This document shows positions 13,320 through 40,113 of a stretch of DNA of 64,000 bases, one piece after another. The notes beneath the pieces were generated by a model. The model made no database searches and was not told where the DNA came from. It was given only the letters and a program-made list of their open reading frames with translations. Source of the DNA: a virus; IMG/VR virus record IMGVR_UViG_3300029787_000005, positions 1 to 64,000 of that record; one strand, written 5' to 3'. The translations under genes were made by a program, and so were the position numbers. The number at the start of each line of letters is the position of its first letter. Positions within the stretch are counted from its first letter, which is position 1.

Positions 13320-14869
13320 TCTTCACAGAGGTTAGTTATCCAGGTTTTGGTAGATATGCAGGAACATATAGAGTAGCCACAGAACTTAGAGACTCAGGAT
13401 ACACAGTCCAGGTCATTGAGTTCTTTACTCGTATGGATAAAGATGAACTACTCAAAGTCATTGATAAGTTTGTTACAAAGGAGACCAAGCTAGTTGGTTT
13501 CTCTTGCACATTCTTTTTACCTAAAGCTATGGGCTGGGGTGGAAGATCAAAGATTAGAAAACTTATCAATACACAAAATATTGATGATGCACTAGATGAA
13601 ACAACACCATCTCCAGGAAGTAAAGTATCAACTGAAAGACATATGTCTACTGATGCAGCAACAGTCTCTGGTGTATCTAATCTGTTGTTTGGTAGAGATG
13701 ATATGTTTGAGATATTTGATCGTATCAAAGAAAGAGGTAATCCACGTATGATGGTTGGAGGTGCCAGAGCTTATCTTGCTGAAGATCCTCCATTCAACTC
13801 TGAGATAGACTATGTTATAAGAGGCCAAGCTGATACATCTGTTGTAGCTTTAGCTGATCATATATTCTATAATGCTGATCTCAAGATAGGATATCAAAAA
13901 GGCAAATGTAAGATTATTGAAGAAAAGGATTATCCGGTAGATGATTTTACTATATCAAGAATAAGATATACCGATAGTGATATCATTATGCCAAAAGAAG
14001 TGTTGCCTTTAGAACTTGCTAGAGGTTGTATATTCAAATGTGCATTCTGCTCATACAATCTTATTGGTAAGAAAGTTTGGGAGTTCAATAGAAACCCAGA
14101 TCTGGTTGCAAGAGATCTCCAAGAGATGTATGATAAGTATGGATCCACAGGATTCATGGTGTGTGACGACACGTATAACGACTCTATAGACAAGGTAGAG
14201 AGGTTCCATAAGGCATTCACTAGCCTGAACTTCCAACCCACCTTCTCAACGTATGCTAGGGCGGATATGATGGTGTCTAAGCCAGAGACAATGCCTTTAT
14301 TATATGAGAGTGGTATGCGTAGTGTGTTCTTTGGTATTGAGACATTGAACCACCGAGCTGGTAAAGCTATTGGTAAAGGTATGGATCCTGAAAAGATAAA
14401 GGATGGGTTATTTAAAGCTAAAGCTACTCCTGGCTGGAATGAGATCGTAACAACATCTGGTTTTATTATTGGATTGCCTTATGAGACTGAAGAGTCTATA
14501 CATGAAACATATCAATGGTTATTGAGAGATGATTGTCCACTAGATTCATTTAGTCCTACAGCTCTAACAATCAGTCCAGATTCTTCAATGGGATTGAATA
14601 TGGCTAAATACGGATATCAATGGGATGAGAATGGTAGCTGGTATAGTGAATGGATGACAGAGCAACAAGCTAAAGATCTGGCAATGTATTATTCCAGACA
14701 GCTTGTGAAGAAGAAAAGAGCTAGGTTCCAGTTTACATTCTTTGGCAGGATGCAAAATATTGGATGGACATTACAAGATTTTGATAATGAAAGATTCACT
14801 AATGATGAAAGTGACAGACGTAAAGATGTTGTTCAATATAACTACTTAGAACGATTAATGAACTTGTGA
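13307..14869 (+). CDS. cobalamin-dependent (B12-binding) radical SAM enzyme
   Basis: N-terminal B12-binding-like region (LVGFS.TF, VGGA, GQAD); RGCIFKCAFC; DDT.N; FGIETL; FIIGLP.ET.ES. Confidence 0.9.
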   Translation: MQIVIFTEVSYPGFGRYAGTYRVATELRDSGYTVQVIEFFTRMDKDELLKVIDKFVTKETKLVGFSCTFFLPKAMGWGGRSKIRKLINTQNIDDALDETTPSPGSKVSTERHMSTDAATVSGVSNLLFGRDDMFEIFDRIKERGNPRMMVGGARAYLAEDPPFNSEIDYVIRGQADTSVVALADHIFYNADLKIGYQKGKCKIIEEKDYPVDDFTISRIRYTDSDIIMPKEVLPLELARGCIFKCAFCSYNLIGKKVWEFNRNPDLVARDLQEMYDKYGSTGFMVCDDTYNDSIDKVERFHKAFTSLNFQPTFSTYARADMMVSKPETMPLLYESGMRSVFFGIETLNHRAGKAIGKGMDPEKIKDGLFKAKATPGWNEIVTTSGFIIGLPYETEESIHETYQWLLRDDCPLDSFSPTALTISPDSSMGLNMAKYGYQWDENGSWYSEWMTEQQAKDLAMYYSRQLVKKKRARFQFTFFGRMQNIGWTLQDFDNERFTNDESDRRKDVVQYNYLERLMNL

Positions 14870-14875
14870 GGTGAC

Positions 14876-15751
14876 ATGAAAGTAGATCAGTGGGAAGTGT
14901 GTATGAATGCAGCTCAAGAAATTGTTCTTAGCAGCTCAAACGGTATATTGCATGATCAAGTTGATCAGTGGCACAATAAAGGATATTTCATAGTTAAGAA
15001 TGTCAATCTACCAGGAGAGGTCAATTCACTAAGAGATGCTTCAAGACAAGCAGAAGACATCAATGACGATAGATTTTTTGGTGAATATGATGGACGTGCA
15101 AGGACAGTTTGGGCACCACATTGGGAAGACTGGGGTAAGTGGTTAGAACACTATGCAAGGAATAATCCAGTACTTCCTGTAGTTAAATATTTAATGGGTG
15201 GCCAGGTTTATATAAACCAATTGCATTTCAACTACAAGCTAGCCAATGGTGGTGGAGCATTTGGATGGCATTCTGATTATACTGTATTCAAGTATCATGA
15301 TAAATGGCAGAATATGAATGGACTTAGTGTGTTCTTCATGCTTGATGATATGAATGAGACTAATGGTCAGTTTCATTTTGCACCAGGGAGTCATAAAGTT
15401 GATCTTCAGTTACAAGAAGGTTTTGATTTACCAGATAGCTTTACTCATGCAGAATATGGTGACAATCCTAGCCATGATAGAGGAAGCACGTCTTCCGATA
15501 CATTCACTGCACCCAGTTATGTTGGAGGACCTGCAGATGGTCCTACATACCCAATTGAAAGAATAGAAGCCAAAGCTGGTGATGCTTTAGTCTTTCATTC
15601 TAATGTGTGGCATATGAGTCCTAAGAATCTTTCAAAGAAGGATCGACGTACTTTCTGCGTATGTTACAATCACATAGACAATAAAACGCAGTGGCCTATC
15701 ACAAATGACCGTAAGAAATGGATGACTCTTAAAGACTTCACTCCTATTTAA
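14876..15751 (+). CDS. PhyH/EctD-like Fe(II)/2OG dioxygenase
   Basis: FGWHSD (EctD-like FxWHSD), LDD....NG.....PGSH, GDA..FHSN.WH.S..N.S...R. Confidence 0.85.
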   Translation: MKVDQWEVCMNAAQEIVLSSSNGILHDQVDQWHNKGYFIVKNVNLPGEVNSLRDASRQAEDINDDRFFGEYDGRARTVWAPHWEDWGKWLEHYARNNPVLPVVKYLMGGQVYINQLHFNYKLANGGGAFGWHSDYTVFKYHDKWQNMNGLSVFFMLDDMNETNGQFHFAPGSHKVDLQLQEGFDLPDSFTHAEYGDNPSHDRGSTSSDTFTAPSYVGGPADGPTYPIERIEAKAGDALVFHSNVWHMSPKNLSKKDRRTFCVCYNHIDNKTQWPITNDRKKWMTLKDFTPI

Positions 15752-15759: not shown

Positions 15760-15763
15760 GATA

Positions 15764-15810
15764 TACGTTCACCCATATAGGGCGGAAGTAGCGAAAGCGA
15801 AGGAACGCAT
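15764..15810 (+). ncRNA. glutamine riboswitch (glnA RNA motif), minimal form
   Basis: CGTTC...GAACG P1, CCC-ATATA-GGG P2, CGGAAGTA E-loop, GC-GAAA-GC P3 and GAAGGAACGC, matching the glnA-motif consensus. Confidence 0.85.
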
Positions 15811-15836
15811 CTTACTTTTAACAAAAGGAGGGTGCT

Positions 15837-16043
15837 GTGAGATATGCAATCTTAAACCAATATCTTAAAAAAGAACGTACAAAAAAAAGCCACATAGCTT
15901 TATTGAAAACTCGAGGTAATTTATTATGTCAACAGAACAGCAAGGTGGGATCAAACCTGAAATATTTCCTGACCACGTTGAGCTTGAATTTACCTTTACT
16001 GAAAACGAGCTATCGTTCAGGGATGCTTTTCTCGAGACGTTAA
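15837..16043 (+). CDS. small basic peptide downstream of riboswitch
   Basis: AAGGAGG RBS and GTG start directly after the riboswitch; overlaps the next gene. Confidence 0.5.
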   Translation: MRYAILNQYLKKERTKKSHIALLKTRGNLLCQQNSKVGSNLKYFLTTLSLNLPLLKTSYRSGMLFSRR

Positions 16044-16885
16044 TTGATATTGCCAGCAAGACCACAAAAGAGTTAGTAATATGCTTTAGTGGTGGAGCAG
16101 ACTCACAATTAGTAAAGTGGGGTTTCGATTATCTCGAAATCCCACATAGAGTCATGCATCAAAGATATCTATTAAATGGTGCTTATCTAAACTGGGAAGA
16201 AGCTGGTTTAGTTCCACCAGAGACAGAGTTTGTAGATATAGATGTAAAGAAGTATCAGAAGTCTAAATTCTTTCAAGATAGATTTGTTAAAGAGTTTCCA
16301 ACTAGTGTGCACTCATCTATTCAATGTGATCTAGATGGTAAGTACGATCCCAATGATATATTCTTAGTTAGTTGTTCATCACCATACAACATATACAAAT
16401 TTGGTTGGAGAGAAGACAAGAGATGGTCTTTTGCTCCATCTAATCTATGGAAGACAATTGGTTTCAGAGAGTATGATTACACTGGTGTATTCTATGATAA
16501 TCCATCAGTGTGTTATGCCCTGTTTGATGATCTTTACAAACAACAATCAAGAGAGTTGGAACAAGGTAAGTGGGAATATTGGTACAAGCATACGTTTTTT
16601 GAACATCACTTTCCAGAAGTGTCTGACAAGATAAAGCAGAAGCTCAATAACGATAAGTTTCCATACTTTTCAGATCTAGTATATGATAGAACAAGAGGCA
16701 TATATCAATATGATATAAATGATAATAGGTACTTGTATGACTGTTATCCTCAAAGGTCATTTATTGGTGTGGAGATGGAAGAGTTTTTTGAGCGTATAGA
16801 AAAAGGAACTACAGTAATGAAGTTTAGTCGTGAATGGTGTAGGTTGGGAGATCAAATAGTTGTTGACACTCCAATCATCGAATGA
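15926..16885 (+). CDS. PP-loop (adenine nucleotide alpha-hydrolase) family protein
   Basis: ICFSGGADS PP-loop. Confidence 0.65.
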   Translation: MSTEQQGGIKPEIFPDHVELEFTFTENELSFRDAFLETLIDIASKTTKELVICFSGGADSQLVKWGFDYLEIPHRVMHQRYLLNGAYLNWEEAGLVPPETEFVDIDVKKYQKSKFFQDRFVKEFPTSVHSSIQCDLDGKYDPNDIFLVSCSSPYNIYKFGWREDKRWSFAPSNLWKTIGFREYDYTGVFYDNPSVCYALFDDLYKQQSRELEQGKWEYWYKHTFFEHHFPEVSDKIKQKLNNDKFPYFSDLVYDRTRGIYQYDINDNRYLYDCYPQRSFIGVEMEEFFERIEKGTTVMKFSREWCRLGDQIVVDTPIIE

Positions 16886-17513
16886 TAGACTTGTTCAAAT
16901 ACCCTATAGGCAAGAACAGAGGGTTGGAATACTCTTATCAGGGGGTATGGACTCAGGTCTTCTACTTAACTTGCTTGATATTGCTTGTACTGATTGCACT
17001 TTTGTAATCTTTACAATGGACAAGCCTGATGGCAGTCTAAAGTATTCTGCAGACATTATACAAAAGAGTAAGTTAAGAAACAAATGGGAACAACACATAG
17101 TTAAAGGTGGAAAGGAAAATGAGATTGCTTCGTTGGGTATTACAGGTAAAACTGCATTTAGACACATTCTTGATGATTATATCACCGACTTGGATGTACT
17201 GTACAGCGGCAATACTTCTAATCCTCCTCAATCTCTTATGTCAACTACCGCACCCCCAGACAGGTCAGTAGCAAACAAAGCTGTAGAAAAGTATGATAAG
17301 TTTGAAATACCATTCATTGAATTGAACAAAGCTGAAACTATTGATCTGGTAAAGAGGCTTGATATAGAATGGTTGTTTGAAGCCTCACATACGTGTACTG
17401 AGTTTGATGTTGGCAGATGTTATCAACAAACAGAAACAATACATTGTTGGCAGTGTATGGAAAGACAATGGGGCTTCATAGAAAACAATATGAGAGATCC
17501 CGGTACAAAATAG
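16860..17513 (+). CDS. QueC-like PP-loop ATPase with Zn-binding Cys cluster
   Basis: LLSGGMDS, PF..L.K.E, SHTC...C...C..C.ER.WGF. Confidence 0.75.
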   Translation: MLTLQSSNDRLVQIPYRQEQRVGILLSGGMDSGLLLNLLDIACTDCTFVIFTMDKPDGSLKYSADIIQKSKLRNKWEQHIVKGGKENEIASLGITGKTAFRHILDDYITDLDVLYSGNTSNPPQSLMSTTAPPDRSVANKAVEKYDKFEIPFIELNKAETIDLVKRLDIEWLFEASHTCTEFDVGRCYQQTETIHCWQCMERQWGFIENNMRDPGTK

Positions 17514-17542
17514 TTGACTAAATACCACGTTAGTAGTATTAT
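17514..17542 (+). promoter_or_regulatory. sigma70-like promoter upstream of carbamoyltransferase/radical SAM operon
   Basis: TTGACT-N17-TATTAT. Confidence 0.65.
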
Positions 17543-17570
17543 ACAATTATAATTGCTTGATAAGGAGTAT

Positions 17571-17825
17571 ATGATGGCAAAAGACGATACAGATATGAGT
17601 CATATCGATCAAAGGCTATTTAAGATGGCTGCGATGATTGATACAACAATCCGATATAACTGTGATGGTATGGAACTCGATGAGTTTGAGCAAAACTATC
17701 TCAATGTCTGGTTGAAGAAAGAACGGGATCCTTTGATTGTCGTTATTCTAGCAACACTAACTGGTGCTAGAGATCCTAATGCGGACGTTGATGGTGAAGT
17801 GGAAGCAGAAGCAGATGCAGCATGA
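17571..17825 (+). CDS. small acidic protein (ends ...EAEADAA)
   Basis: TAAGGAG RBS; ATGA overlap with the carbamoyltransferase. Confidence 0.75.
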   Translation: MMAKDDTDMSHIDQRLFKMAAMIDTTIRYNCDGMELDEFEQNYLNVWLKKERDPLIVVILATLTGARDPNADVDGEVEAEADAA

Positions 17826-19255
17826 GGGTACTCGGCTTCAGTGAAGGATTTCATGATGCCGCTGTAACTGTCTTAGATGGTAGTGAGATACTTTTTGCTG
17901 GTCACAGTGAAAGGTTCTCCAAAGTGAAAAATGACAAATACGTTTGTCAGGAGTTAAAAGATTATGTTAAAGAATACACGCACGGACTACGACCTCCTGA
18001 AATTGCTTTCTATGAACGGCCTTTTATCAAACGGACCCGTCAAGCGTATGCGGGGCAATGGAAGTCAGCTTTTAAAGCACGTCACCTTAACTATAACTAC
18101 GATCATTGCTTTAATCATCATCTTTCTCATGCTGCTGCCGCATTCCAATGTTCTCCATTCAGTAATGCAAATGCGCTTGTAGTAGATGCTATAGGAGAAT
18201 GGGATACCGTTAGTATATGGTATTGTGAATATGTTAACGAGAAAGCTGTATACAAAAAAGTAAAGTCTATGAGGTATCCCACTTCAATAGGTTTATTCTA
18301 TTCTGCTGTGACAGCTAGAGTAGGACTCAAACCTATGGAGGATGAATATATTACTATGGGTATGGCAGCATATGGCAAACCCAACAAAGAACTATATGAA
18401 GAATTAAGACGTCTAATGTTGAAGAAGAATCTTCACAGAGGAATGAATGGTTTACTATCAGAATATGATGATGTTGATATAGCATTCAATGCACAAAAGC
18501 TGGTAGAGAATATTCTAAAGACATTTGTAAACAAGTTAGACAAAAAACTTCCTATGGTATATGGTGGAGGTGTTGCGCTTAATAGTGTTGCAAATGGATT
18601 AATTTTGAGAAACAAACAACACTATGTGTTTCCTAATCCTGGTGATGCTGGTTCTTCATTAGGTGCAGCTGCATTGGTTCATAGGAATAAGATAAATTAT
18701 ACTCATTCATTTCATGGTTATAAATTATCAATGTTGACTGTTGATCAAATAAAACATGTTGTGGATGTGTTAGAGAAAGGAGAGCCAGTTGGTATTGCAG
18801 CTGGCAAAGCAGAATTTGGACCCAGAGCTTTAGGCAATAGAAGTTTATTATGTGATCCAAGAACATCAGAAAATAAAGATAGAGTTAATGACATAAAGAA
18901 ACGTCAGAAGTTTAGACCATTTGCTCCATCTATACTTTCTGAACATGCATCAAAATATTTTAGAACATTTAGACAACATGATTACAGCTATATGCAGAAT
19001 GTTGTTAAAGCTAGAGATTCATCATTCCTGGCTACCATGCATGAGGATGGTTCTGCCAGAGTGCATACAGTTGATCGATCTACCTGGTGTTATTCACCAT
19101 TGAGACATATACTTGAAATATGGTATGAAAGAACTGGATGTCCTACATTATTGAATACAAGTTTGAATATTAAAGGTCAACCTATGGTTAATGATAGTGC
19201 TGATGCAAAAGCATTTGCAGACGAATATGGAGTAGAAGTAGTTTGCAATGGATGA
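17822..19255 (+). CDS. carbamoyltransferase (NodU/CmcH/TobZ family)
   Basis: HDAA, ERFS..K, HHLSHAA, DAIGE, MGMAAYG, GGVALN, GDAG, EFGPRALGNRS, FRPFAP, H.DGSAR, LLNTSLN. Confidence 0.95.
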   Translation: MRVLGFSEGFHDAAVTVLDGSEILFAGHSERFSKVKNDKYVCQELKDYVKEYTHGLRPPEIAFYERPFIKRTRQAYAGQWKSAFKARHLNYNYDHCFNHHLSHAAAAFQCSPFSNANALVVDAIGEWDTVSIWYCEYVNEKAVYKKVKSMRYPTSIGLFYSAVTARVGLKPMEDEYITMGMAAYGKPNKELYEELRRLMLKKNLHRGMNGLLSEYDDVDIAFNAQKLVENILKTFVNKLDKKLPMVYGGGVALNSVANGLILRNKQHYVFPNPGDAGSSLGAAALVHRNKINYTHSFHGYKLSMLTVDQIKHVVDVLEKGEPVGIAAGKAEFGPRALGNRSLLCDPRTSENKDRVNDIKKRQKFRPFAPSILSEHASKYFRTFRQHDYSYMQNVVKARDSSFLATMHEDGSARVHTVDRSTWCYSPLRHILEIWYERTGCPTLLNTSLNIKGQPMVNDSADAKAFADEYGVEVVCNG

Positions 19256-20651
19256 ACGTATTGGGCTTATCAAAGATAAGTTAGCTGAGCAAGTTAGTTC
19301 AACTTTTTGTTTGGCTAAGTTTCATCACGTAACAATATATCTACAAACTGGTGAGACTCACAGTTGTTATCATCCACCACCACATCACATCCCGCTTAAA
19401 GAACTTGAGCGGGATGCTTCAGCTCTACATAACACTGAACAAAAGAAACAAGAACGTAAATTGATGCTCGAAGGTAAGAAACCTAAGGGCTGTCAGTATT
19501 GTTGGAACGTTGAGTCATTAGGTAAAGAGTATGTCAGTGACAGACATGAACGTAATGCATCTATTCATAGAGATGAGAGAGTAGATGAAATAGTCAAGCA
19601 TGGCTATGATCATCATATAAATCCAGAGTACATTGAGATAAGTTTTGGTAATGAATGTCAGTTTAAATGTGGATACTGTCATCCAAAAGCAAGTAGTAGT
19701 TACTGGAAAGAGATAGAGAAGTTTGGTCCATATGATATGGTTGAAAACCATAGACTGGATATTGATTGGATCAAACTATTCAAAAGAGAAGAAGAGAACC
19801 CATATGTCGATGCTTGGTGGGAATGGTGGCCTGAGGTAAGAAAGACTCTTAGTATTTTGAGGATAACTGGTGGTGAGCCATTACTTCAACAAAGTACGTG
19901 GAAGTTGTTTGAGAACATCTCTAAGTATCCGCTACCAGATCTTGAGATCAATACAAATAGTAATCTTGGTATGACTAATAGAATAGTTAAGAGATTATCT
20001 AAGTATGTAAAAGAGTTTGAAGATGAAAATAAAATCAAAAGATTCAAACTATTCACTTCATTAGATACATGGGGTTCAAGAGCTGAGTATATAAGAACTG
20101 GTCTGGATCTAAAAGTATGGGAAGAAAATTTCCATACATATTTAACGGAGACTAGTGCCAACATTACATTTATGATGACGTTTAATATATTGACCGTCAC
20201 CACATTTAAGAGTTTGTTAAAGAAAATATTAGAGTGGAGAGAACAGTACCCTGATGTGACAAATGGGGCAGGACAGCTACATCGTGTTCGTTTTGATACA
20301 CCATATCTCAAAGAACCATTACAGTATGATATGAATCTGTTACCCAAGAATCAGTTTATGCATTATATGAATGACTCTCTACAATTTTTGAAAGATAATG
20401 TCAAAGAAGGTGATCCAACAAAGTTTAGTGACCTTGAGTATTGGAAGTTTAAGAGAGTTGTTGATTACATGCAACAAACAAACTATTCCAAAGAAAGAGT
20501 ATTAGAAGGTCGTATTGATTTTTATAATTGGTTTAATGAACTTGACAGAAGACGGAATACAAATTTTTACAACACTTTCCCTGAAATGAAGGAGTTCATG
20601 GATCAATGTCAGTCGTTAGCAAAAGCCCAGAGCAAAAGCAAGAACTCTTAA
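19248..20651 (+). CDS. N-terminal twitch-domain radical SAM protein 1
   Basis: FC..K...SC...CQYC N-terminal cluster; CQFKCGYC; TGGEP. Confidence 0.9.
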   Translation: MDERIGLIKDKLAEQVSSTFCLAKFHHVTIYLQTGETHSCYHPPPHHIPLKELERDASALHNTEQKKQERKLMLEGKKPKGCQYCWNVESLGKEYVSDRHERNASIHRDERVDEIVKHGYDHHINPEYIEISFGNECQFKCGYCHPKASSSYWKEIEKFGPYDMVENHRLDIDWIKLFKREEENPYVDAWWEWWPEVRKTLSILRITGGEPLLQQSTWKLFENISKYPLPDLEINTNSNLGMTNRIVKRLSKYVKEFEDENKIKRFKLFTSLDTWGSRAEYIRTGLDLKVWEENFHTYLTETSANITFMMTFNILTVTTFKSLLKKILEWREQYPDVTNGAGQLHRVRFDTPYLKEPLQYDMNLLPKNQFMHYMNDSLQFLKDNVKEGDPTKFSDLEYWKFKRVVDYMQQTNYSKERVLEGRIDFYNWFNELDRRRNTNFYNTFPEMKEFMDQCQSLAKAQSKSKNS

Positions 20652-21967
20652 ACGAACGTAAGAGCTTCTGCATATTACCTTGGGTTCACTTATATGCAGA
20701 ACCAGATGGAACAGTATTTCCATGTTGTACAGCAACACCTTTATGGGATGGTGAAATGGGTGAGCCTGGGACTAGGACTGATCCTTACTTTGCAACATCT
20801 AATATAAAAGACAAGTCTATATTAGAGGCTTTGAATACTCCAAATTTCAATAAACTCAGATTAGATATGTTGAATGGAGAAGAATTACCAAGTACATGTA
20901 CAAGATGTAAGAGATTTGAAGATGTTGGTAATGATAGCTACAGACATTATGGTAGACGGCACTTTGGTCAGTTTATAGATGCTATTGACAATACAAATGA
21001 AGATGGAAGTTTAAAAAAACTTGATCTAAAGTTTTTAAATGTTAGATTCAGCAATCATTGTAACATGGCGTGTCTTACTTGTAATGCTCAATGGAGTACT
21101 ACTTGGTATGATAAGTCTCCTTGGTTATGGAAAGATAAAACAAGAACAAAACTTTTAGATCTCAATGACAACTCTAAGTATCCAATCTGGGAAGAGATAG
21201 AACCTTATTTGCACACAGTAGAAAAGATATACTTCACCGGTGGTGAACCGCTAATGATGCCAGCGCATTGGAAGATACTCAAGTACCTGGTTGATAATAA
21301 TCTTGAAGAGAAAGTAGAGTTGCAATACAATACTAATCTAAGTAGGTTAAAATTTGGTAAACAACATGCAATGGATTACTGGCCAAAGTTTAAAGAGATT
21401 GATCTTGGACTTAGTATTGATGGTGTTGAAAAAGATATAGAAATTATAAGATGGGGTACAAAGTGGAACGATGTTGTGGCTAACATCAAAGAGATACAAA
21501 AGTATGATAATATAAGATACTCAATAGATTCAGTTATCAGTATCTTTAATATATACCACCTACCAAAAATGGTCACCTACTTTCATAATGAAAAGTTAAC
21601 AAAATACAATACCAATACAGTTGCAAATATAGCTCATGAACCTGAGCCTTTGAGTCTCACATCTATTCCTTCAGATATGAAACCAACAGTTGAAGCATTC
21701 TTAAAAACAGAATGGGAAAAGCTACCAATAGAGATTAGATCAAAATATTTGAACACAAACTGGCAGACGTGTATAGACTATATGTATGCTCGTGATACAT
21801 ACAAACCTGGAAAACTTTCTGAGCATATAAACGCTACTCTGAATTTTGCAAAGGATTCATTATTAGAACATATACCATTGGTGAAAATGATATACGAACG
21901 TGATGCTCCATTTGATAGATGGAACAAGAATATTGGAGAATCTGGTGGCTATAAAGAACCCATCTGA
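20606..21967 (+). CDS. N-terminal twitch-domain radical SAM protein 2
   Basis: FCILPW.H...PCC...CTRC; CNMACLTC; TGGEP. Confidence 0.9.
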   Translation: MSVVSKSPEQKQELLNERKSFCILPWVHLYAEPDGTVFPCCTATPLWDGEMGEPGTRTDPYFATSNIKDKSILEALNTPNFNKLRLDMLNGEELPSTCTRCKRFEDVGNDSYRHYGRRHFGQFIDAIDNTNEDGSLKKLDLKFLNVRFSNHCNMACLTCNAQWSTTWYDKSPWLWKDKTRTKLLDLNDNSKYPIWEEIEPYLHTVEKIYFTGGEPLMMPAHWKILKYLVDNNLEEKVELQYNTNLSRLKFGKQHAMDYWPKFKEIDLGLSIDGVEKDIEIIRWGTKWNDVVANIKEIQKYDNIRYSIDSVISIFNIYHLPKMVTYFHNEKLTKYNTNTVANIAHEPEPLSLTSIPSDMKPTVEAFLKTEWEKLPIEIRSKYLNTNWQTCIDYMYARDTYKPGKLSEHINATLNFAKDSLLEHIPLVKMIYERDAPFDRWNKNIGESGGYKEPI

Positions 21968-23159
21968 TAACGAAAATTTTTGCATACTTCCATGGATGCA
22001 TCTGTACGCAGAACCAAACGGTGATGTGTTTCCATGCTGTACGGCTGTACCATATCCAGGAATAGAAGAACTAAAAGGTAGTCTCAAAGACAACACATTG
22101 GCAGAAATATATCATTCTGATGAGTGGAATAAGCTCAGAAAAGATATGATGGAAGGCAAGAGAAATGATGCTTGTACCAGATGTTGGCAGTTTGATGATG
22201 CAGGAGGATCTTCATATAGAAAACATAACAACAATCTATTCAAGAAACATTTTAATCTTGTAGACTTAACAGCTGAAGATGGTAGCATAGAAGAGTTTCA
22301 TTTTAAAGCTATCAATATAAGGTTCAGTACAGAATGTAACTTTGCATGTTTAACTTGTGGTCCTTCTTGGAGTACTGGATGGAACAAATATATCATTGGA
22401 CCAAAAGGACCAAATCTTAAACTAGAAGACAATACAAAAGAGTCTGTGTGGGAACAGATCAAAGAACATTTACCAACGGTTGATGAGATATACTTCACCG
22501 GTGGTGAACCATTAATGATGCCTGAACATTATAAGATTCTAGATTATCTAATACAACATGGTCTTACAGAAATGACTCTTAGATACAATACTAATATGAG
22601 CAATCTTAACTTCTACAAATACAACGTAGTTGATAAGTGGAAGATGTTTAAGAAGGTTGAAGTAGGAGCAAGTATTGATGCATATGGTGAAAGAGCAGAG
22701 TTAATTAGACTTGGTACTAAGTGGCAACAAGTTGAAGATAATTTATTATCTCTCAAAGGTATTGACAACATTAACTTAGGTATTGATAGTGTTATAAGTA
22801 TACTGAATGTTGATCATATTCCTAAGTTTCACATCTATCTTGAACACAGGGGAATTGTTGACGAAACAAGTATAATGTCGTATAATATAGCATTCAGCCC
22901 ACCAGAATTCAATATACAAGCTATACCAAGAAGTATAAAAGGGGAGATTGAACAATACCTAGACATACACCTAGAGAACTACTCTGGACGGATGACCCAT
23001 CCCAGATGGGGATTCCCTCAAATCATATCTTTTATGAAGGAGAAGGATACGTGGGATCGATCCAAGTTAGTTCACAATCTTCATTCAAGATTCAGACATG
23101 TATACAAGGAGATGACGGAGAACATTCCTATTATCAAACAGTGTCTACGACATGACTAA
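21900..23159 (+). CDS. N-terminal twitch-domain radical SAM protein 3
   Basis: FCILPW.H...PCC...CTRC; CNFACLTC; TGGEP; true start may be a downstream GTG. Confidence 0.9.
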   Translation: MMLHLIDGTRILENLVAIKNPSDNENFCILPWMHLYAEPNGDVFPCCTAVPYPGIEELKGSLKDNTLAEIYHSDEWNKLRKDMMEGKRNDACTRCWQFDDAGGSSYRKHNNNLFKKHFNLVDLTAEDGSIEEFHFKAINIRFSTECNFACLTCGPSWSTGWNKYIIGPKGPNLKLEDNTKESVWEQIKEHLPTVDEIYFTGGEPLMMPEHYKILDYLIQHGLTEMTLRYNTNMSNLNFYKYNVVDKWKMFKKVEVGASIDAYGERAELIRLGTKWQQVEDNLLSLKGIDNINLGIDSVISILNVDHIPKFHIYLEHRGIVDETSIMSYNIAFSPPEFNIQAIPRSIKGEIEQYLDIHLENYSGRMTHPRWGFPQIISFMKEKDTWDRSKLVHNLHSRFRHVYKEMTENIPIIKQCLRHD

Positions 23160-24408
23160 AGAGGCTTATCTAAACAACAAAACATTTTGTATGCTACCAT
23201 GGACTCATTTGCATATGTGGCCTAATGGTGAAACCTATCCTTGTTGTTTAGCAGATTCAAGAATGCCAATTGGAAGTTCTCATGATAATACCATACAAGA
23301 GTTATGGAACAATGATAAGATGAGATCTCTTAGAAATGCTATGCTTGAAGGAAGAGAGAGTCAAGAGTGTAGAAGATGTTATGAGCAAGAAAGATCAGGT
23401 ATACAAACACTAAGAATGTCTAGCAATAAAGAGTTTGCTGATCATTGGTGGAAGGTAGAAGAAACAGAAGAAGATGGAAGTGCTGGTATGGTGAATATGG
23501 CATATCTTGATATCCGTTTCTCAAACCTATGCAATCTAAGATGCCGTACTTGTGGACCTAACTTCAGTACTAGCTGGTATGATGATCATGTTAAGATGCA
23601 TGGTGATCCAGGTATACCTCAACTACTTAAAGTTGGTAAAGATATGGATACATTCTTCAAAGAACTTGAACCTATGTTACTTGATGTGGAGAAAGTATAC
23701 TTTGCAGGCGGTGAAGCAATCATAACAGAAGAACATTATAGAGTATTAGACTATTGGTTGCATCATAAAATGACTGATGTCAAGTTAAGCTACACTACTA
23801 ACTTTACTAACATGAGATTCAAGAAGAAGACTATCTTTGAATATTGGAATTCATTTGAGACTGTAGAAGTGGCTGCTAGTTTAGATGGTAATCATGAACG
23901 AGGTGAATATCTTAGAAAGAATCTAAAGTGGGATAGAGTTGTACAAAATAGAAAAGATATGATGGAACAATGTCCTAATGTTAGCTTTTGGATAACACCT
24001 ACAGTTAGTATATTTAATGTTTTCAATGTATCTGAGTTTCATAAAGAGTGGGTTGATCTAGGATTGTTAGAACCAGAGAACTTTAGAATCAATCCATTGT
24101 TAGATCCTGAGTTTTATAGAACACAATGCCTACCACGAAAATGTAAAAAGATGGTAGAACAAAAGTATCTTGAGTGGATAAAGGAGCTTAGACAATATGG
24201 TAGCAGAGTTGATAAAGTCATAAGCGACTATGAAAGTTTGATTCATTTTATGTGGGAAGAAGATAAAACTGAACTGCTGACTGTATTCTTTGATAAGGTA
24301 ATTCAATTAGATAAGCTCAGAGGTGAATCATTCTTTGACACGTATACTGAGTTTGCCAAGTTGAAAGAGTACTATTTTCACAATGAGTTTTGGAAGAATC
24401 GTGGCTGA
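23152..24408 (+). CDS. N-terminal twitch-domain radical SAM protein 4
   Basis: FCMLPW.H...PCC...CRRC; CNLRCRTC; AGGE. Confidence 0.9.
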   Translation: MTKEAYLNNKTFCMLPWTHLHMWPNGETYPCCLADSRMPIGSSHDNTIQELWNNDKMRSLRNAMLEGRESQECRRCYEQERSGIQTLRMSSNKEFADHWWKVEETEEDGSAGMVNMAYLDIRFSNLCNLRCRTCGPNFSTSWYDDHVKMHGDPGIPQLLKVGKDMDTFFKELEPMLLDVEKVYFAGGEAIITEEHYRVLDYWLHHKMTDVKLSYTTNFTNMRFKKKTIFEYWNSFETVEVAASLDGNHERGEYLRKNLKWDRVVQNRKDMMEQCPNVSFWITPTVSIFNVFNVSEFHKEWVDLGLLEPENFRINPLLDPEFYRTQCLPRKCKKMVEQKYLEWIKELRQYGSRVDKVISDYESLIHFMWEEDKTELLTVFFDKVIQLDKLRGESFFDTYTEFAKLKEYYFHNEFWKNRG

Positions 24409-25612
24409 GACATTTTGCATATATCCATGGACAAATATTCATACAAATACTGATGGTAGATGTAAGCTATGCTGTAACATCTACACAGAAGATTATATAA
24501 CAATTGATGATAAGTATGCTATTCTAGGTCATCAAGAGTTTGATGAAATATGGCATGGTAAGTATATGACTGATGTTAGAAAGGCAATGTTACAAGGTGA
24601 ACGTATTGATGCATGCCACAGATGTTATGAGCATGAAGAGAAAGGATTGGAAAGTTCAAGACAATGGGCAAACGCAAACTTCTTCACTGAGAGTTTAGAT
24701 CCAGTATTTGATCCAAATCTACTTGAACTAAGACTTGGTAATGTATGTAATTTAAAGTGTAGCGGATGCTGGGCTGTAAGTTCTGATCAATTGTATAACG
24801 AAAGAAAAAGGATACTTGATAATGAGAAGGTTCCTCAATGGTTACAGAATGTATGGCGACATGAGTTGGATAGTGTTGATCAGTTTGATTATGATTGGTT
24901 CAATACACCAATGTTTGACAAATTCATTGATAGAGTGGCGCCTAATCTCAAAAGATTGTATCTTACGGGGGGAGAACCAACGCTCATCCAAAAAAATAGA
25001 GAGATCCTAGACAAGTTAGTAGAAGTTGGTAACAATGAATGTTATGTTTGTTGGACTACTAATCTTACTAATTTTCCAGATGAGTTTTATGATAAATTAG
25101 AATTCTTTGATGAGTCAGAGATCCAGATGAGTATTGATGGGTATGAAATGACTAACTCATATGTAAGATATCCAACCAATTGGAAATCAGTAGAAAAGAA
25201 CTTTGCAAAGGCTCAACAGTTAACTGAGAAGTGTATACTAAAAGTATACTTTGTATATCAAGCATGGAATGTATATGATGTAACAAAAGTAATAAGATGG
25301 ATAGAACGTAATCAAAAACGTAGAGTAGACTTTGTTCCTATCTTTCTTGAAAGCCCAGATTATATTCACAGCTGTGTGTGGCCAGAAGAGATAAGAACAG
25401 ATGTAGTGAACAAACTACAAGCATTTGATACACAATATGAAGGTGCAATACGTAATATAATAAACTATACAAAAAATACAGATAAGTATAAAGGCGAGCT
25501 TATCAATAAAATGAGAACGTATATACACTTCCTTGATAAGTATAGGAAGTATAAATTTGAAGATGTGTTTCCAGATATGGTAAAAGTGATATCTCATGCC
25601 CACCCTGACTAA
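24383..25612 (+). CDS. N-terminal twitch-domain radical SAM protein 5
   Basis: FCIYPW...LCC...CHRC; CNLKCSGC; TGGEP. Confidence 0.9.
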   Translation: MSFGRIVAETFCIYPWTNIHTNTDGRCKLCCNIYTEDYITIDDKYAILGHQEFDEIWHGKYMTDVRKAMLQGERIDACHRCYEHEEKGLESSRQWANANFFTESLDPVFDPNLLELRLGNVCNLKCSGCWAVSSDQLYNERKRILDNEKVPQWLQNVWRHELDSVDQFDYDWFNTPMFDKFIDRVAPNLKRLYLTGGEPTLIQKNREILDKLVEVGNNECYVCWTTNLTNFPDEFYDKLEFFDESEIQMSIDGYEMTNSYVRYPTNWKSVEKNFAKAQQLTEKCILKVYFVYQAWNVYDVTKVIRWIERNQKRRVDFVPIFLESPDYIHSCVWPEEIRTDVVNKLQAFDTQYEGAIRNIINYTKNTDKYKGELINKMRTYIHFLDKYRKYKFEDVFPDMVKVISHAHPD

Positions 25613-26558
25613 GATTGTACCAGCCAAAGAAAAATGGTTGAGTATTGTTTGGCAAGTAAATGACTTTTGTAACTTTCGTTGCACTTATTGTAATGAAGGA
25701 AACTGGGGTGGTAGGTTTAAACATGAGGATGACATTGATAAGATCCTCACAACATTAGACTATATCATAGATCTGTATCAGGATCGTGGTTATCGCTACT
25801 TTAAACTGTTTCTAAGCGGTGGTGAGCCTACTCTATGGCCAGGACTCATACCAACCATAGAGCTGTTTAGAGAGCGTGTAGAGTTCCCTGGAAGCTGTGT
25901 AGGTGTCAATACAAACTTATCAAGAGGTCTGAAGTGGTGGCAAGAAAACTACACCTTGTTTGATGATATAGTAGCAAGCTATCATGCAGAATTTACAAAG
26001 GACGACAGATACTTTGAGAACTATGATTGGTTGTGTACAAGAATAGCATATATGTGTGCCAGAGTGATGATGCACAAAGACAAATGGGACCAATGTATTG
26101 CTATGACAGAGAGACTCAAAGAATGTACAAACCACATTATTGATTACGTGCCAGTGTTAGATTCTCTTAGACCAGACACAGAAGAATATCATTATGATGA
26201 GGACTATCAGATTGAGTTTTTCAAATCTAATCCAGATGTAAAGACAACCAATTTTACTATATTCAAAGATCCAAATTACGCTTATGCAAACATGATAGTT
26301 GATGGTGAAGAGATGCCAATAGAATCAAATATGATAATGCAAAATGGTTGGAACTTCTGGAAGGGTTGGGAATGTAACATACAAGACAGTCTCCACATAT
26401 ATCCAGATGGAAGAATAAGACAAGCTAGCTGTGGTGTAGGACCAATAGTTGGTAATATAGCTGGCAAGTTTGATTCAAGTAATATCAAACCAATAATTTG
26501 TCCGAAGCATCACTGTCATTGTGCTGCTGATTTTAATATTGCAAAAGGTCCAATATAA
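25596..26558 (+). CDS. radical SAM protein 6 with C-terminal twitch-like Cys cluster
   Basis: CNFRCTYC near the N-terminus; SGGEP; C-terminal C...DG...SC...CPKHHCHC. Confidence 0.9.
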   Translation: MPTLTKIVPAKEKWLSIVWQVNDFCNFRCTYCNEGNWGGRFKHEDDIDKILTTLDYIIDLYQDRGYRYFKLFLSGGEPTLWPGLIPTIELFRERVEFPGSCVGVNTNLSRGLKWWQENYTLFDDIVASYHAEFTKDDRYFENYDWLCTRIAYMCARVMMHKDKWDQCIAMTERLKECTNHIIDYVPVLDSLRPDTEEYHYDEDYQIEFFKSNPDVKTTNFTIFKDPNYAYANMIVDGEEMPIESNMIMQNGWNFWKGWECNIQDSLHIYPDGRIRQASCGVGPIVGNIAGKFDSSNIKPIICPKHHCHCAADFNIAKGPI

Positions 26559-27916
26559 TGTATTGTTATTATGCTATGAACGGTTTGAGTATAAACAACT
26601 TTGGTAGAGTAAGACCATGTTGTGTGGCAAAAACATTTAAGTCAATATCAGGAGCTCCTGGTGTAATTAACTCTCATGACTTAGACTATATCAATACGTG
26701 GCCAATCAAAATGAACAATGGTAAGTTTGGATTCCAACCACAGATTCAAGCAATGAATCATGTTAAAGAACTTCTTAATGATCCTGTGTTGTGTCATCTT
26801 AGAGAGAAGCTAAAGAAGAATAGAAGACCTGCAGAATGTGAAAGATGCTTCTATGTTGAGGACCAAGGCGGAGTCTCATATAGAATGGATGCAAACGAAA
26901 CTCACAAACATCTTATATATGAAGAATCCATCCAAGAAAAAGATGGGATAATGATTGATATGGAGCATATATCATACTTGGATATTACTCTTGGTAATGT
27001 GTGCAATTTACAATGCAAGACATGCAATCCATGGAGTAGTCACAACTGGATAGAAGAAGCGCAAGTTATACCTCACCAAGAACACAAACCAGAATACATT
27101 CCTTACTTAAAGCAAGGTAGAGAACAGCCTTGGTTTGTAAAAGCATTCAGAGAAAGATTCTTTGATCCTATACTTGGTCAGATAAGAACAATCAACTTTC
27201 TTGGTGGAGAGCCACTAGTTGTTAAAGAACACTATGAGTGGTTGAAGCATATCATAAACAAAGGATGGGCAAAGAATAAGACACTACAATATACATCAAA
27301 TGGAACTACAATACCTAACGCATTGATTGATTTGTGGTCACATTTTGAGCATGTAAATCTTGGTATAAGTATTGACGCCATAGGTGATAAAGCATACTAT
27401 ATAAGGCATCCTAGTAAATGGTCAGTGATTGAGAAAAACTTCGACAAACTAAGACAAAGGTGTAAAGAGGTTAAGCATATCAATGTGCAGTTGCATACAA
27501 CGGTAAGTATGCTTAACATCTTAGACATCGGCGAAGTGTATGAGTTTTCGAGGAATCAATATCAGAAATTTCACTATTTCGATGGAGAAGCCAGGACTCC
27601 TCACGGTTATATTAACATACTTCCTCATATCAACATTGTTGACTTCCCTAGGTATTACCATATCCGCCATCTACCTACTGAGTTGAAACACCAAGCAGTT
27701 AAACAAATAAAGTTGACTTATGATCGAGTTAAAGGTACAATAGAAAATCATTGGGAACAAAGTAATCTCATCAATCTAAATAACTTAGCAGAAATTATTA
27801 TGGAAGATCGTGATCCTCATATGTGGGATCAATTCTTAGATGTGCAAAGAGCGTCAGATAAATTTAGAAAATTAAAAGGAAGCGATTACCTACCATGGAT
27901 GAGTCAATATGTCTGA
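26558..27916 (+). CDS. N-terminal twitch-domain radical SAM protein 7
   Basis: YC...RPCC...CERC; CNLQCKTC; LGGEP. Confidence 0.9.
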   Translation: MYCYYAMNGLSINNFGRVRPCCVAKTFKSISGAPGVINSHDLDYINTWPIKMNNGKFGFQPQIQAMNHVKELLNDPVLCHLREKLKKNRRPAECERCFYVEDQGGVSYRMDANETHKHLIYEESIQEKDGIMIDMEHISYLDITLGNVCNLQCKTCNPWSSHNWIEEAQVIPHQEHKPEYIPYLKQGREQPWFVKAFRERFFDPILGQIRTINFLGGEPLVVKEHYEWLKHIINKGWAKNKTLQYTSNGTTIPNALIDLWSHFEHVNLGISIDAIGDKAYYIRHPSKWSVIEKNFDKLRQRCKEVKHINVQLHTTVSMLNILDIGEVYEFSRNQYQKFHYFDGEARTPHGYINILPHINIVDFPRYYHIRHLPTELKHQAVKQIKLTYDRVKGTIENHWEQSNLINLNNLAEIIMEDRDPHMWDQFLDVQRASDKFRKLKGSDYLPWMSQYV

Positions 27917-28811
27917 AGAAGTAGAATGGAGTCACATAACCGAAGCTAACAAGTCTACTTGGCCAAATTGGGATGATTATAATGGAGTGTTTATATCTCT
28001 TGGTTGCAGTCACACAGCCGGAAGTGAGATTGATAGTATGGGTGATAATGACGAACAGAGACAAAAATCTTATGGTGCTAAACTAGCAGAGAAGTTTGGT
28101 TACCAGCATTTGAACTATGCACAGTGTGGTGGTAGTAATCATAGAATATTTGATCAGTTCTGTGCAATCATGGCCGACATAGAATCTGGATATGGTTACT
28201 ATGCTCCTGTAAGAGAAGACTTCAACTATTTCTTTCTAATAGGATGGACTAGTTTGAATAGACTTGATCTGAGATACAAACAAGAAGACGATAATGAGTG
28301 GAAACAAGCTGGTCATTATGGTGACCGAGCTGATAACAAATATATTCCAGCTACTGTTGGTACTAATCCACTTATGATTAAAGATAAAGAGATACGTAAG
28401 GCATTTGATATGGCTTATATCTATGCAGATGATGTGATTGCTGCTAATAGACTAGCATCTTATATCTTTGCAATACAAAATATCATGATATCGTCTCCAT
28501 ATAAATACTATATGTTCAATGCGATTGAAAACTTTTACGATACACATACATCTCGTAAAGACCTTAATCAATCGTACAATCCAATTAGGTTTCCCCCATT
28601 TGTAGGAAACCAAAAGATTTATCAGAATATTGATACAAGGTTTTACTACAAGCCCATGGACAAACATTTCAACTATTATAGATGGTGCACTGAGGTTAAA
28701 GGTCATTCACCAAAAAGCCAAACATATTGGCATCTTGGAGAACAAGCTCATATAGATTGGGCAGAACATATTTACCCGGAGATAATTAATGCTTATCCAG
28801 ATTTGGCATAG
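27909..28811 (+). CDS. SGNH-like hydrolase/acyltransferase
   Basis: LGCSHTAG, N.A..GGSN.RI, IGWT..R and C-terminal H....H..WA. Confidence 0.55.
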   Translation: MSEEVEWSHITEANKSTWPNWDDYNGVFISLGCSHTAGSEIDSMGDNDEQRQKSYGAKLAEKFGYQHLNYAQCGGSNHRIFDQFCAIMADIESGYGYYAPVREDFNYFFLIGWTSLNRLDLRYKQEDDNEWKQAGHYGDRADNKYIPATVGTNPLMIKDKEIRKAFDMAYIYADDVIAANRLASYIFAIQNIMISSPYKYYMFNAIENFYDTHTSRKDLNQSYNPIRFPPFVGNQKIYQNIDTRFYYKPMDKHFNYYRWCTEVKGHSPKSQTYWHLGEQAHIDWAEHIYPEIINAYPDLA

Positions 28812-28908
28812 TTTTATTGATTGGATAACATATCCATACATAAGATACAAAAGAAGAAAAAGACTTGCAGAGATCCGTAAACACGATCCATTTATCTATG
28901 AGGAATGA
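28789..28908 (+). CDS. small phage protein (39 aa)
   Basis: GGAGA RBS; ...KRRKRLAEIRKHDPFIYEE, read by hand. Confidence 0.55.
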   Translation: MLIQIWHSFIDWITYPYIRYKRRKRLAEIRKHDPFIYEE

Positions 28909-29163
28909 GTGATGGCACTATATACTATCTACACCAGAGATCTATGTGGCTTTTGTGATGCAGCAAAGGCACTTATGGATTCATTGAATCTTCCATACGA
29001 AGAATTTAATCTTGAATCACATCCACACCACAGAGATGAGTTACTTTCAAAGGTACCTCCTGGAACTACTACTGTTCCACAAATATTTGTCGGTGACCTA
29101 CACATTGGTGGCTTTGATGACTTCAAAGTATATGTAGAGGAATCAGTACAAAGCGGAAGATAA
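28909..29163 (+). CDS. glutaredoxin
   Basis: CGFC, TVPQIF, IGG. Confidence 0.9.
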   Translation: MMALYTIYTRDLCGFCDAAKALMDSLNLPYEEFNLESHPHHRDELLSKVPPGTTTVPQIFVGDLHIGGFDDFKVYVEESVQSGR

Positions 29164-29169
29164 TTTATT

Positions 29170-30141
29170 ATGGTAAAATTGACAATAATGGACAGTGGTC
29201 CAGAAAAAAATGAGTTGAATAAAAATGCTTGGGGTGGTACTGAGCTTATGCAAAATAGATTGTATAAGGAGATGCCAAAAGATCTGATTGATCAATTCCA
29301 AATTATTTGTTCTAGACCTCGTAAGTTAAAAGAAGATAAGAAGAGGATACTTTGGTGTCATGATCTTGCACAAGATCCTGAGGTAGAACATTTAAAAGAT
29401 GGTGGTCATGAGAAGTATGACAAACTTGTGTTTGTATCTCATTGGCAATTTCAAGACTACATGTATCATCTTGGTATACCTCATTCATCAGGTTATGTTC
29501 TTCAAAATGCTATTGATCCAATAGATGAACATGAAAAACCAACAGATGAGATCAACCTCGTATACTTTTCAACACCACATAGAGGGTTGGATATATTGGT
29601 TCCTGTATTTGAGGAGATGAGAAACAATCACTTTCAGAGTATAAAGAAACCAGTTAACCTACATGTATACTCTAGTTTCAAATTGTATGGGTGGCCCGAG
29701 AGGGACAAAGAACACAAAGCTCTTATTGATAAGTGTAAGAACACTGAAGGTATTCATTATCATGGAGCTGTACCAAATGCAGAGATGAGAGAAAACTTGA
29801 AGAAGATGCATATCCTTGCATACCCATGTGTATGGCCTGAGACAAGCTGTATGGTTCTTATGGAAGCTATGTCAGCAAAGTTATTGTGTGTTCATAGTTC
29901 ATTTGCTGGGTTACCAGAGACAGCTGCTAACTGGACTATGATGTATCCAGTACATGAAGTAGCTAATGATCATGCTCAGATCTTTGCACAGAATTTGTTT
30001 AACGCAGTATCATTAGTAGATGACAGTGCATTACAAGATAGGTTACATATGCAGAAACAATATACTGATGCATTCTACAATTGGGATGTAAGAGCTATGC
30101 AGTGGAAAATATTTTTGGAAGGCTTAGCAAATGGGGGTTGA
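29170..30141 (+). CDS. glycosyltransferase (GT-B, GT4-like)
   Basis: GGTE, FVS.WQ, STPHRGL, YP..W.ETSC...MEAM. Confidence 0.85.
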   Translation: MVKLTIMDSGPEKNELNKNAWGGTELMQNRLYKEMPKDLIDQFQIICSRPRKLKEDKKRILWCHDLAQDPEVEHLKDGGHEKYDKLVFVSHWQFQDYMYHLGIPHSSGYVLQNAIDPIDEHEKPTDEINLVYFSTPHRGLDILVPVFEEMRNNHFQSIKKPVNLHVYSSFKLYGWPERDKEHKALIDKCKNTEGIHYHGAVPNAEMRENLKKMHILAYPCVWPETSCMVLMEAMSAKLLCVHSSFAGLPETAANWTMMYPVHEVANDHAQIFAQNLFNAVSLVDDSALQDRLHMQKQYTDAFYNWDVRAMQWKIFLEGLANGG

Positions 30142-40104: not shown

Positions 40105-40113
40105 TATGTAATG

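Follow-up and report, generated by a model that had tools for sequence, protein, structure and literature searches.

What would a marine virus do with seven consecutive genes for radical S-adenosylmethionine (SAM) enzymes? The question is raised by the first 64,000 nucleotides of IMG/VR virus record IMGVR_UViG_3300029787_000005 (positions 1 to 64,000, here called the window), in which such an array occupies 19248-27916. A first-pass annotation of the window had described seven consecutive overlapping open reading frames (ORFs) at this place, and its coordinates proved exact: all seven lie on the + strand, and all contain CX3CX2C and GGE. We find that six of them belong to a catalogued family with an N-terminal twitch domain (N-twitch), that the array is part of a block of 13 closely packed genes, and that this block is directly preceded by a match to the glutamine riboswitch. 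We propose that the N-twitch enzymes form a conserved tailoring cassette performing radical C-H chemistry on a sugar-type substrate, a reading to which we give a probability of about one in two.

The seven genes are R1 (19248..20651, 467 aa, CQFKCGYC), R2 (20606..21967, 453 aa, CNMACLTC), R3 (21900..23159, 419 aa, CNFACLTC), R4 (23152..24408, 418 aa, CNLRCRTC), R5 (24383..25612, 409 aa, CNLKCSGC), R6 (25596..26558, 320 aa, CNFRCTYC) and R7 (26558..27916, 452 aa, CNLQCKTC), and successive genes overlap by 46, 68, 8, 26, 17 and 1 nt. The earlier assignment of six of them to an N-terminal twitch family is borne out by the NCBIfam profile NF033640 (N_Twi_rSAM, 'twitch domain-containing radical SAM protein'; curated cut-off 170 bits), which matches R1, R2, R3, R4, R5 and R7 over their full length at 306, 338, 348, 395, 297 and 305 bits respectively. 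R6, at 21.9 bits, is excluded from this family. None of the seven is a member of the viperin family, as all score 21-43 bits on model NF038283 against a cut-off of 180.

Conservation was assessed in an alignment of 81 family members, for which we use the numbering of R4. C13, C73, C76, C127, C131, C134, the GGE motif, R61, R88, R255, N217 and S243 are invariant in all 81, and C32 is present in 80. The N-terminal auxiliary cysteines reported for six of the window's genes (C13, C31/C32, C73 and C76) are present in each of them, so that four auxiliary cysteines precede the core motif at 127-134 (C127/C131/C134); SPASM maturases, in comparison, have seven. A SPASM-type Pfam match over residues 12-102, ahead of the Radical_SAM core, scores above the gathering cut-off of 21.5 bits in R2-R5 but, at 18.5 bits, stays under it in R7. 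The first-pass annotation had also remarked on the missing aromatic residue before the last cluster cysteine, and the position is indeed T or G in five genes and Y in two. Since an aromatic residue is missing in 66 of the 81 members and present in 15 (T22 Y15 S12 I12 G10 M10), the non-aromatic position is a family trait.

The N-terminal domain resembles the twitch domain of BtrN in sequence: positions 12-84 of the family profile match BtrN residues 183-258 (4M7T) at E 4.8e-9. BtrN, the 2-deoxy-scyllo-inosamine dehydrogenase of butirosin biosynthesis and the founding twitch enzyme, has the same four-cysteine pattern, but carries the domain at its C terminus, whereas in the window proteins it lies N-terminally (residues 12-84). 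The BtrN chain beyond its twitch domain is not matched by the family profile, and the window proteins are about 150 residues longer. For the family-profile core, a profile search of the PDB gave weak matches to TvgB, viperin, SkfB, BlsE, GDGT-MAS and MoaA. The AlphaFold2 model of R4 (pLDDT 95.7) has a long helical C-terminal part, and its best matches in a Foldseek search of the PDB, which include SkfB, anSME, CteB, viperin and BlsE, reach TM scores of 0.3-0.4.

R6 differs from its neighbours. It had been described as carrying its twitch domain at the C terminus; the C-terminal cysteines stand, with C260, C302, C307 and C309 invariant in 18 of 18 relatives, and from this pattern a metal or cluster site is likely, but the label 'twitch' lacks support and a Pfam scan of R6 yields no SPASM domain. 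With a Pfam Radical_SAM score of 30 bits, R6 represents a separate short radical SAM family, which adjoins N-twitch genes in 13 sources, both viral and bacterial. A further radical SAM gene upstream of the block, R0 (13307..14869, +, 520 aa; Pfam Radical_SAM 59 bits), is of the B12-binding type (class B). In NCBIfam it scores best with families of B12/radical SAM methyltransferases (PhpK-type, 74 bits), in every case far under the cut-off, and its type likewise adjoins N-twitch genes in 13 sources. A ninth radical SAM gene lies elsewhere in the phage genome, outside the window (91935-92390, -; Pfam 58.9 bits, in a frame of 318 residues).

The claim that the array consists of diverged paralogs is strengthened by the phylogeny. 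The six N-twitch copies show 21-39% pairwise identity, and in a tree of 83 sequences they represent old subfamilies and not recent copies. The tree contains several deep, well-supported subfamilies, each of which includes other phage lineages and bacteria. R1 falls in a separate deep clade common to other phages and Bdellovibrionota, and the R4 subfamily includes single-copy bacterial members. The sole duplication private to the window's lineage is that of R2 and R3, which are 39% identical. In comparison with L010, the closest distinct relative (protein identity 84-96%), the ratio of nonsynonymous to synonymous substitution rates (dN/dS) is about 0.03-0.16 for 15 of 16 genes between 13307 and 30141, R3 not being included. 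These low values in the 15 genes computed point to strong purifying selection and indicate that the array genes are working genes. We considered whether the paralogs could be decaying duplicates and ruled this out, as all frames are open and dN/dS is 0.03-0.16 in the same 15 genes.

Immediately upstream of the array's gene block lies a glutamine riboswitch aptamer (Rfam RF01739, glnA RNA; 15764..15811, +), which matches the model from end to end (positions 1-53 of 53) at 50.4 bits and E 4.3e-8, against a gathering score of 35 bits. It occupies a 174-nt gap, the only sizeable one upstream of the overlapping genes. The three nearest relatives (L008, L009 and L010) have the match at 49.9-50.4 bits, and it is absent from the four sister loci searched. 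In an alignment of the window, L008 and L010 the aptamer is identical in all three, while the flanking genes have synonymous divergence (dS) of 0.35-0.95. A hairpin is predicted in which the 3' end of the aptamer pairs with an AAGGAGG Shine-Dalgarno sequence just after it. From 15826 to 16040 (+), this strong AAGGAGG is followed by a GTG-started frame of 68 codons, which overlaps the start of the gene at 15926 in another frame; an indel of 3 nt in L008 and L010 leaves the frame open. Such a frame could act as a leader ORF through which the switch is coupled to the block.

The block itself comprises 13 genes (15926-28811), all of which overlap or lie no more than 39 nt apart, and it opens with two putative ATPases of the amide-forming PP-loop kind. 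The first (15926..16885, +, 319 aa) has an SGGADS motif in its translation and no match in Pfam or NCBIfam. Some clusters among its Atlas look-alikes contain QueC or Asn_synthase in 14-38% of members, which is weak and serves as a lead only. The second (16860..17513, +, 217 aa) is QueC-like, with an SGGMDS motif and a Pfam QueC match of 33.4 bits to the C-terminal part only; on the QueC equivalog it scores 22.5 bits against a cut-off of 150. These are followed by a small conserved protein, described below, and by a NodU/TobZ-type carbamoyltransferase (17822..19255, +; Carbam_trans_C 153 bits, Carbam_trans_N 110 bits), and then by the array. The last gene of the block encodes a DUF6071 protein (27909..28811, +; Pfam DUF6071 28.2 bits), and a similar family is found in five sister loci. 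Carbamoyltransferases of this kind use carbamoyl phosphate, a glutamine-derived donor, and from the riboswitch match we infer that the whole block is under glutamine control. The riboswitch, the two PP-loop ATPases and the B12 radical SAM gene had not been mentioned in the first-pass annotation.

The small gene (17553..17825, +) encodes 84-90 aa, and its stop overlaps the carbamoyltransferase start. It is 100% identical to its counterpart in L010 over 76 aa at a dS of 0.41, and gave no Pfam match and no usable Atlas match. In four other loci (L012, L013, L040 and L048), a basic peptide of 33 residues is encoded with the same overlap of the carbamoyltransferase start, and an RDP[FL]I motif is common to this peptide and the window's protein. 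Because the small ORF travels with the carbamoyltransferase even where its length is 33 residues, it looks like a partner of that enzyme rather than a precursor peptide; carbamoyltransferases of other clusters, for example the saxitoxin cluster, also have small proteins alongside them. Its candidacy as the precursor of a ribosomally synthesised and post-translationally modified peptide (RiPP) was thus rejected, the tie to the carbamoyltransferase holding across lineages.

Arrays of this kind recur. Among the related viral contigs found with R4, 16 of 16 carry 3-6 family members side by side, and in two related viral contigs (for example L011) two members are fused in one ORF of 850 residues. 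A relative is encoded in 384 of 400 candidate stretches of a genome collection, and the best 78 loci are mostly metagenome-assembled genomes (MAGs) of Bdellovibrionota, Elusimicrobiota and Bacteroidota, although certain contigs labelled 'MAG' resemble phage arrays. A profile search of 1.84 billion representatives (50%-identity clusters) returned 8,873 matches at E <= 1e-30; among the best 150 of these, 30 have two or three matched stretches. The first-pass annotation's description of the family as mostly uncultured, from marine and aquifer sources, is only roughly right, since there are cultured carriers. Among phages these are Ralstonia phage RsoM2USA and Vibrio phages K566, K567 and QD01, and the best 78 loci include two bacterial isolates (Paenibacillus polysaccharolyticus and Cytophagales bacterium Alg240-R148). 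The existence of cultured Ralstonia and Vibrio phage carriers makes the family open to testing.

Copy number can be far higher in bacteria. When whole genomes were scanned, one from Elusimicrobia yielded 60 matches and one from Bdellovibrionia 23, while three others had 8, 3 and 1. The first of these (G003, 2.9 Mb, about 60 matches) contains many tandem ORFs of 560-1210 residues (e.g. L041, L044 and L059). In the Bdellovibrionia genome (G005, contig C192, 22-55 kb), 14 N-twitch genes, accompanied by R6-type genes, lie within 33 kb on both strands (L104, L105). Among 48 longer relatives, 33 have SPASM and Radical_SAM (and Fer4_12) Pfam domains only, most at about double length, and 15 are fusions to TPR repeats. 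All six long ORFs scanned from G003 likewise have long N-terminal TPR arrays. Two ORFs from other Elusimicrobia genomes are fused to Sel1 repeats. The earlier suggestion that the paralogs act as a hetero-oligomer gains some support from the two- and three-domain fusions that occur naturally.

The proposal of a sugar-type substrate draws on the company kept by these genes. We clustered 939 crude gene calls of at least 60 residues lying within 7 kb of family members, drawn from the 92 of 95 sources that had a hit. The neighbour found most consistently is the NodU/TobZ-type carbamoyltransferase, which occurs in 23 of the 92 sources and in 16 of the 17 viral ones, the remaining viral source being a 7.7-kb contig that ends inside its array. 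The R6-type and B12-type radical SAM genes rank after it, with 13 sources each. The same enzyme adjoins a family member in the soil jumbo phage RsoM2USA and in Marine virus AG-345-D19. In sister phage cassettes (L011-L019, L040 and L048), the radical SAM genes are interleaved with a multi-copy family that has no Pfam match. The predicted structure of that family (pLDDT 81.7) retrieved GT-B glycosyltransferases in nearly all listed Foldseek rows (E 3e-3 to 4e-2), and in the VIA comparison it reached Z 9.6 to T4 alpha-glucosyltransferase and 9.5 to FUT11, with many rows tied. The sister cassettes also hold a DegT/DnrJ/EryC1 aminotransferase (3.7e-55), a P-loop kinase, an FNR-like reductase, DUF59 and 2-oxoglutarate (2OG)-Fe(II) oxygenases, together with a borderline cytidylyltransferase-like match (20.9 bits vs a cut-off of 21). 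UDP-glucose dehydrogenase, NAD epimerase, UbiA, PhyH and an ABC ATPase were found at other loci. A second family of the sister cassettes (A5), possibly of the GT-A type, gave nothing credible in a PDB profile search, and twelve neighbour-family profiles, mostly from sister cassettes, found no relative in the 64-kb window.

The first-pass annotation had suggested a sugar-type substrate, and we retain this as the best reading because of the neighbouring carbamoyltransferase and the sugar enzymes of the sister cassettes; the window itself adds a GT4-type glycosyltransferase (Glycos_transf_1) shortly after the block (29170..30141, +; Pfam 43.7 bits, dN/dS 0.027 vs L010). In the BtrN pathway, oxidation of a secondary alcohol on an aminocyclitol by BtrN is followed by the action of a DegT-family aminotransferase that depends on glutamine. 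A DegT gene is likewise present in a sister cassette. No cyclitol synthase was found in the 128-kb record of the phage.

From these observations we infer Fe-S loading, SAM cleavage, a sugar-type substrate and a division of labour among the paralogs, which could be combined as follows. In each enzyme, CX3CX2C would carry the [4Fe-4S] cluster that binds SAM, and the four cysteines near the N terminus would carry a second one; the domain that contains them would be a BtrN-like twitch domain relocated to the front of the protein. Reductive cleavage of SAM would generate a 5'-deoxyadenosyl radical, which would abstract a hydrogen atom at an unactivated C-H position. The substrate would be of carbohydrate type: a sugar, an amino sugar, a cyclitol or a short-glycan residue. 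The twitch cluster might then accept an electron or hold the substrate, and the result would be a ketone formed by oxidation, an epimerisation or a dehydration, and the old subfamilies could serve separate positions or steps. The products may be amidated or aminated, by the two PP-loop ATPases here and by the DegT aminotransferase in sister cassettes, and further tailored through carbamoylation, C-methylation (B12 radical SAM), hydroxylation (PhyH) and transfer (GT4). Cellular glutamine would switch the 13 overlapping genes at 15926-28811 through the riboswitch in front of them, and candidate destinations for the product are the virion, the host surface or a free metabolite. The DUF59 and FNR-like reductase genes would provide support functions for so many Fe-S enzymes.

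Several observations weigh against a sugar-type substrate. No substrate is known for any member of the family, and the fold and sequence matches of the core are generic, with no close solved relative. The Bdellovibrionia array of 14 copies in 33 kb contains no Pfam GT1 or GT2 match; three of its interleaved proteins have no PDB relative at E <= 0.01 in a sequence search, and 28 neighbour-family profiles found nothing beyond a stray 22 bits among these interleaved proteins (250-680 residues). A Pfam tally of the 115 immediate neighbours of single-copy bacterial members gave no dominant family, the commonest occurring in 3-6 of the 115. The GT-B assignment of the sister-cassette family is weak, as the scores of its predicted structure are weak. 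DegT, NAD epimerase, NTP_transferase and DHQ-synthase-like genes were not found in the 128-kb record, so the evidence for sugars comes largely from sister cassettes; as the record is about 73% complete, however, such absences are themselves weak evidence.

The same generic matches of the core point elsewhere, and we weighed whether the enzymes instead modify a protein or peptide (of the virion, of the host, or RiPP-like), by cross-linking, epimerisation or C-methylation, which we consider unlikely. The best Foldseek and profile matches of the core include the SPASM/twitch peptide maturases SkfB, anSME, CteB, SuiB and TvgB, though at TM 0.34-0.40, and the window proteins have one auxiliary site of four cysteines where the maturases bind two clusters and, in the SPASM type, have seven such cysteines. 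The TPR fusions (15 of 48 long relatives, and 6 of 6 ORFs from G003) and the two Sel1 fusions in Elusimicrobia also speak for this alternative and against sugars, as TPR and Sel1 repeats usually hold proteins, and 23-60 copies per genome look like diversification against many targets rather than one pathway. Against this, Pfam scans of the seven proteins found no RiPP recognition element and a precursor-like gene was not seen, although a short precursor can readily escape notice; the one conserved ORF of small size goes with the carbamoyltransferase, even where it has 33 residues; and the phage neighbours are sugar-handling enzymes.

We consider it very unlikely that the substrate is a lipid, isoprenoid or other non-sugar small molecule, with chemistry resembling the radical SAM synthases of tetraethers and rings. 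In Bacteroidota and Bdellovibrionota, family members do adjoin paralogs of UbiA prenyltransferase, reductases of the FabI type and several PhyH genes, but UbiA and FabI are absent from the phage loci, and the core's weak matches to the tetraether synthase Tes/GDGT-MAS are no stronger than its other generic radical SAM matches. Nor is there a predicted membrane protein in the window's block: in none of the 17 proteins of 13307-30989 does a hydrophobic 19-residue stretch exceed a mean Kyte-Doolittle score of 1.7. Hypermodification of nucleotides or DNA, with the radical SAM enzymes acting on nucleotides or DNA-attached sugars so as to protect the phage genome, seems to us more improbable still. 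T4-like phages often modify their DNA, the block contains QueC-like PP-loop genes, the core matches viperin and MoaA, enzymes of nucleoside triphosphates, weakly, and T4 DNA alpha-glucosyltransferase is tied at the top of the VIA rows for the sister GT-B-like family. Those rows, however, lie within 1 Z unit across many unrelated GT-B enzymes, and the seven proteins score far below the cut-off of the viperin model (21-43 vs 180 bits). In the 128-kb record, itself about 73% complete, no gene of the thymidylate-synthase or hydroxymethylase families (nor psbA) was found, and bacterial genomes hold 8-60 family copies outside any phage context.

A more specific form of the sugar-type reading can be put forward, although we regard it as decidedly doubtful. 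The block may be a phage-borne, glutamine-gated pathway to a nitrogen-rich, aminoglycoside-like pseudo-oligosaccharide, the product being a bioactive molecule, free or virion-bound, synthesised in the course of infection, and the subfamilies working as fused or associated pairs. The set of tools in the window and sister cassettes (twitch radical SAM, B12 methylase, TobZ-type carbamoyltransferase, DegT/PP-loop enzymes and GT4) mirrors the aminoglycoside tailoring enzymes BtrN, GenK, TobZ, BtrS/NeoB and BtrM/NeoD, and the 17 proteins of the window's region all look soluble.

The virus that carries the block is a distant T4-like myovirus, uncultured and marine. The IMG/VR record totals 128 kb, of which the window is the first 64 kb, and CheckV estimates its completeness at 73%. 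T4-type features of the window include PhoH, a T4-type RNase H and gp6-like baseplate genes; the gp6-like baseplate wedge protein is 33-35% identical to those of Caulobacter phage Cr30, Sinorhizobium phage phiM12, HTVC008M and Melnitz (33% in the case of the Pelagibacter phage HTVC008M; Melnitz is an OM43 phage). The nearest baseplate genes begin about 25 kb from the radical SAM block, and no fibre genes lie beside the block in the window. A two-piece transfer-messenger RNA (tmRNA) gene of alphaproteobacterial type is present at 40087-40379 (+; RF01849 117 bits, RF04321 119 bits), which ARAGORN did not report. It gives a hint that the host is alphaproteobacterial or a similarly streamlined marine organism.

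Near-identical DNA (97-98% of sampled words) occurs in 19 marine DNA runs from 9 studies dated 2014-2025, 16 of which are possibly the source or copies of it. In two marine runs outside those 16, the full 13000-31000 region is covered with 0-4 differences per contig. In the metatranscriptome X20, short contigs 90-99% alike cover 23 of 30 bins of this region, although an RNA library may contain DNA, and X24 yielded a single matching piece of 33 nt. A megablast search of a phage collection with the 8.7-kb array gave zero matches, and a promoter and terminator scan gave counts no higher than the shuffle level.

The genes flanking the block include others of possible relevance. Directly before the riboswitch is a PhyH-family Fe(II)/2-oxoglutarate dioxygenase (14876..15751, +; Pfam PhyH 87.9 bits), which is ectoine-hydroxylase-like at 86.7 bits, under the cut-off. 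After the block follows an 84-aa protein (28909..29163, +), conserved in L008-L010 and named glutaredoxin-like from its CGFC motif and length. Further upstream are a DUF59 Fe-S assembly gene (2857-3198, +), two 2OG-FeII_Oxy_5 genes (5368-6887, +) and a GH113-family glycoside hydrolase fused to DUF5648 (7183-8352, +), before which the oxygenase pair lies; in sister contig L014, too, the array comes after such a pair. The stretch 10412-12549 (+), located between the window's oxygenase genes and its radical SAM block, encodes a CxxCxxCC-domain protein, a weak SprT-like match and a DenV-type pyrimidine dimer glycosylase, which are probably unrelated auxiliary metabolic or repair genes.

Elements of this arrangement have been noticed before. 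Glutamine riboswitches and two-piece tmRNAs are known in Melnitz-like and SAR11 myophages, marine T4-like phages related to the window's, and in the passages of Buchholz et al. 2022 that treat them (PMC9004378) the riboswitch is placed at the 3' end of the tmRNA gene, whereas in the window it lies 24 kb from the tmRNA and before the PP-loop/carbamoyltransferase/radical SAM block. Radical SAM gene cassettes are mentioned in the host recognition cluster of marine pelagimyophages (Zaragoza-Solas et al. 2020, PMC7029224), phages of the same kind as the window's to judge from the 33% identity of its wedge protein to that of HTVC008M; the parts of that paper concerned with the cassettes name no family, copy number, neighbours or function, and describe a negative riboswitch scan. 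The entry NF033640, which six window genes match full length, is a catalogue entry silent on arrays, neighbours and regulation, and our literature search found no paper naming the N-twitch family, its arrays, its function or any characterised member. New in the window are the glutamine riboswitch directly before the 13-gene block and the opening of that block with two PP-loop ATPases.

The N-twitch family is large (8,873 clusters) and catalogued, but without any studied member that we found in the literature. Its copy number is unusual, with arrays of 3-6 in open-ocean phages and 14 to tens in some bacteria, and we know of no pathway that uses so many radical SAM enzymes of one family. As nine oxygen-sensitive Fe-S enzymes are maintained in a virus of an aerobic, iron-poor habitat, a real benefit must exist. 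Through the riboswitch, a phage would have linked a biosynthetic block to the nitrogen state of its host. The identity of the substrate would probably reveal new radical sugar chemistry, as well as what it is that marine phages decorate, be it virion, host surface, DNA or a metabolite, and if the aminoglycoside-like reading were true, the N-twitch family would hold a large and unexplored store of radical chemistry on carbohydrates.

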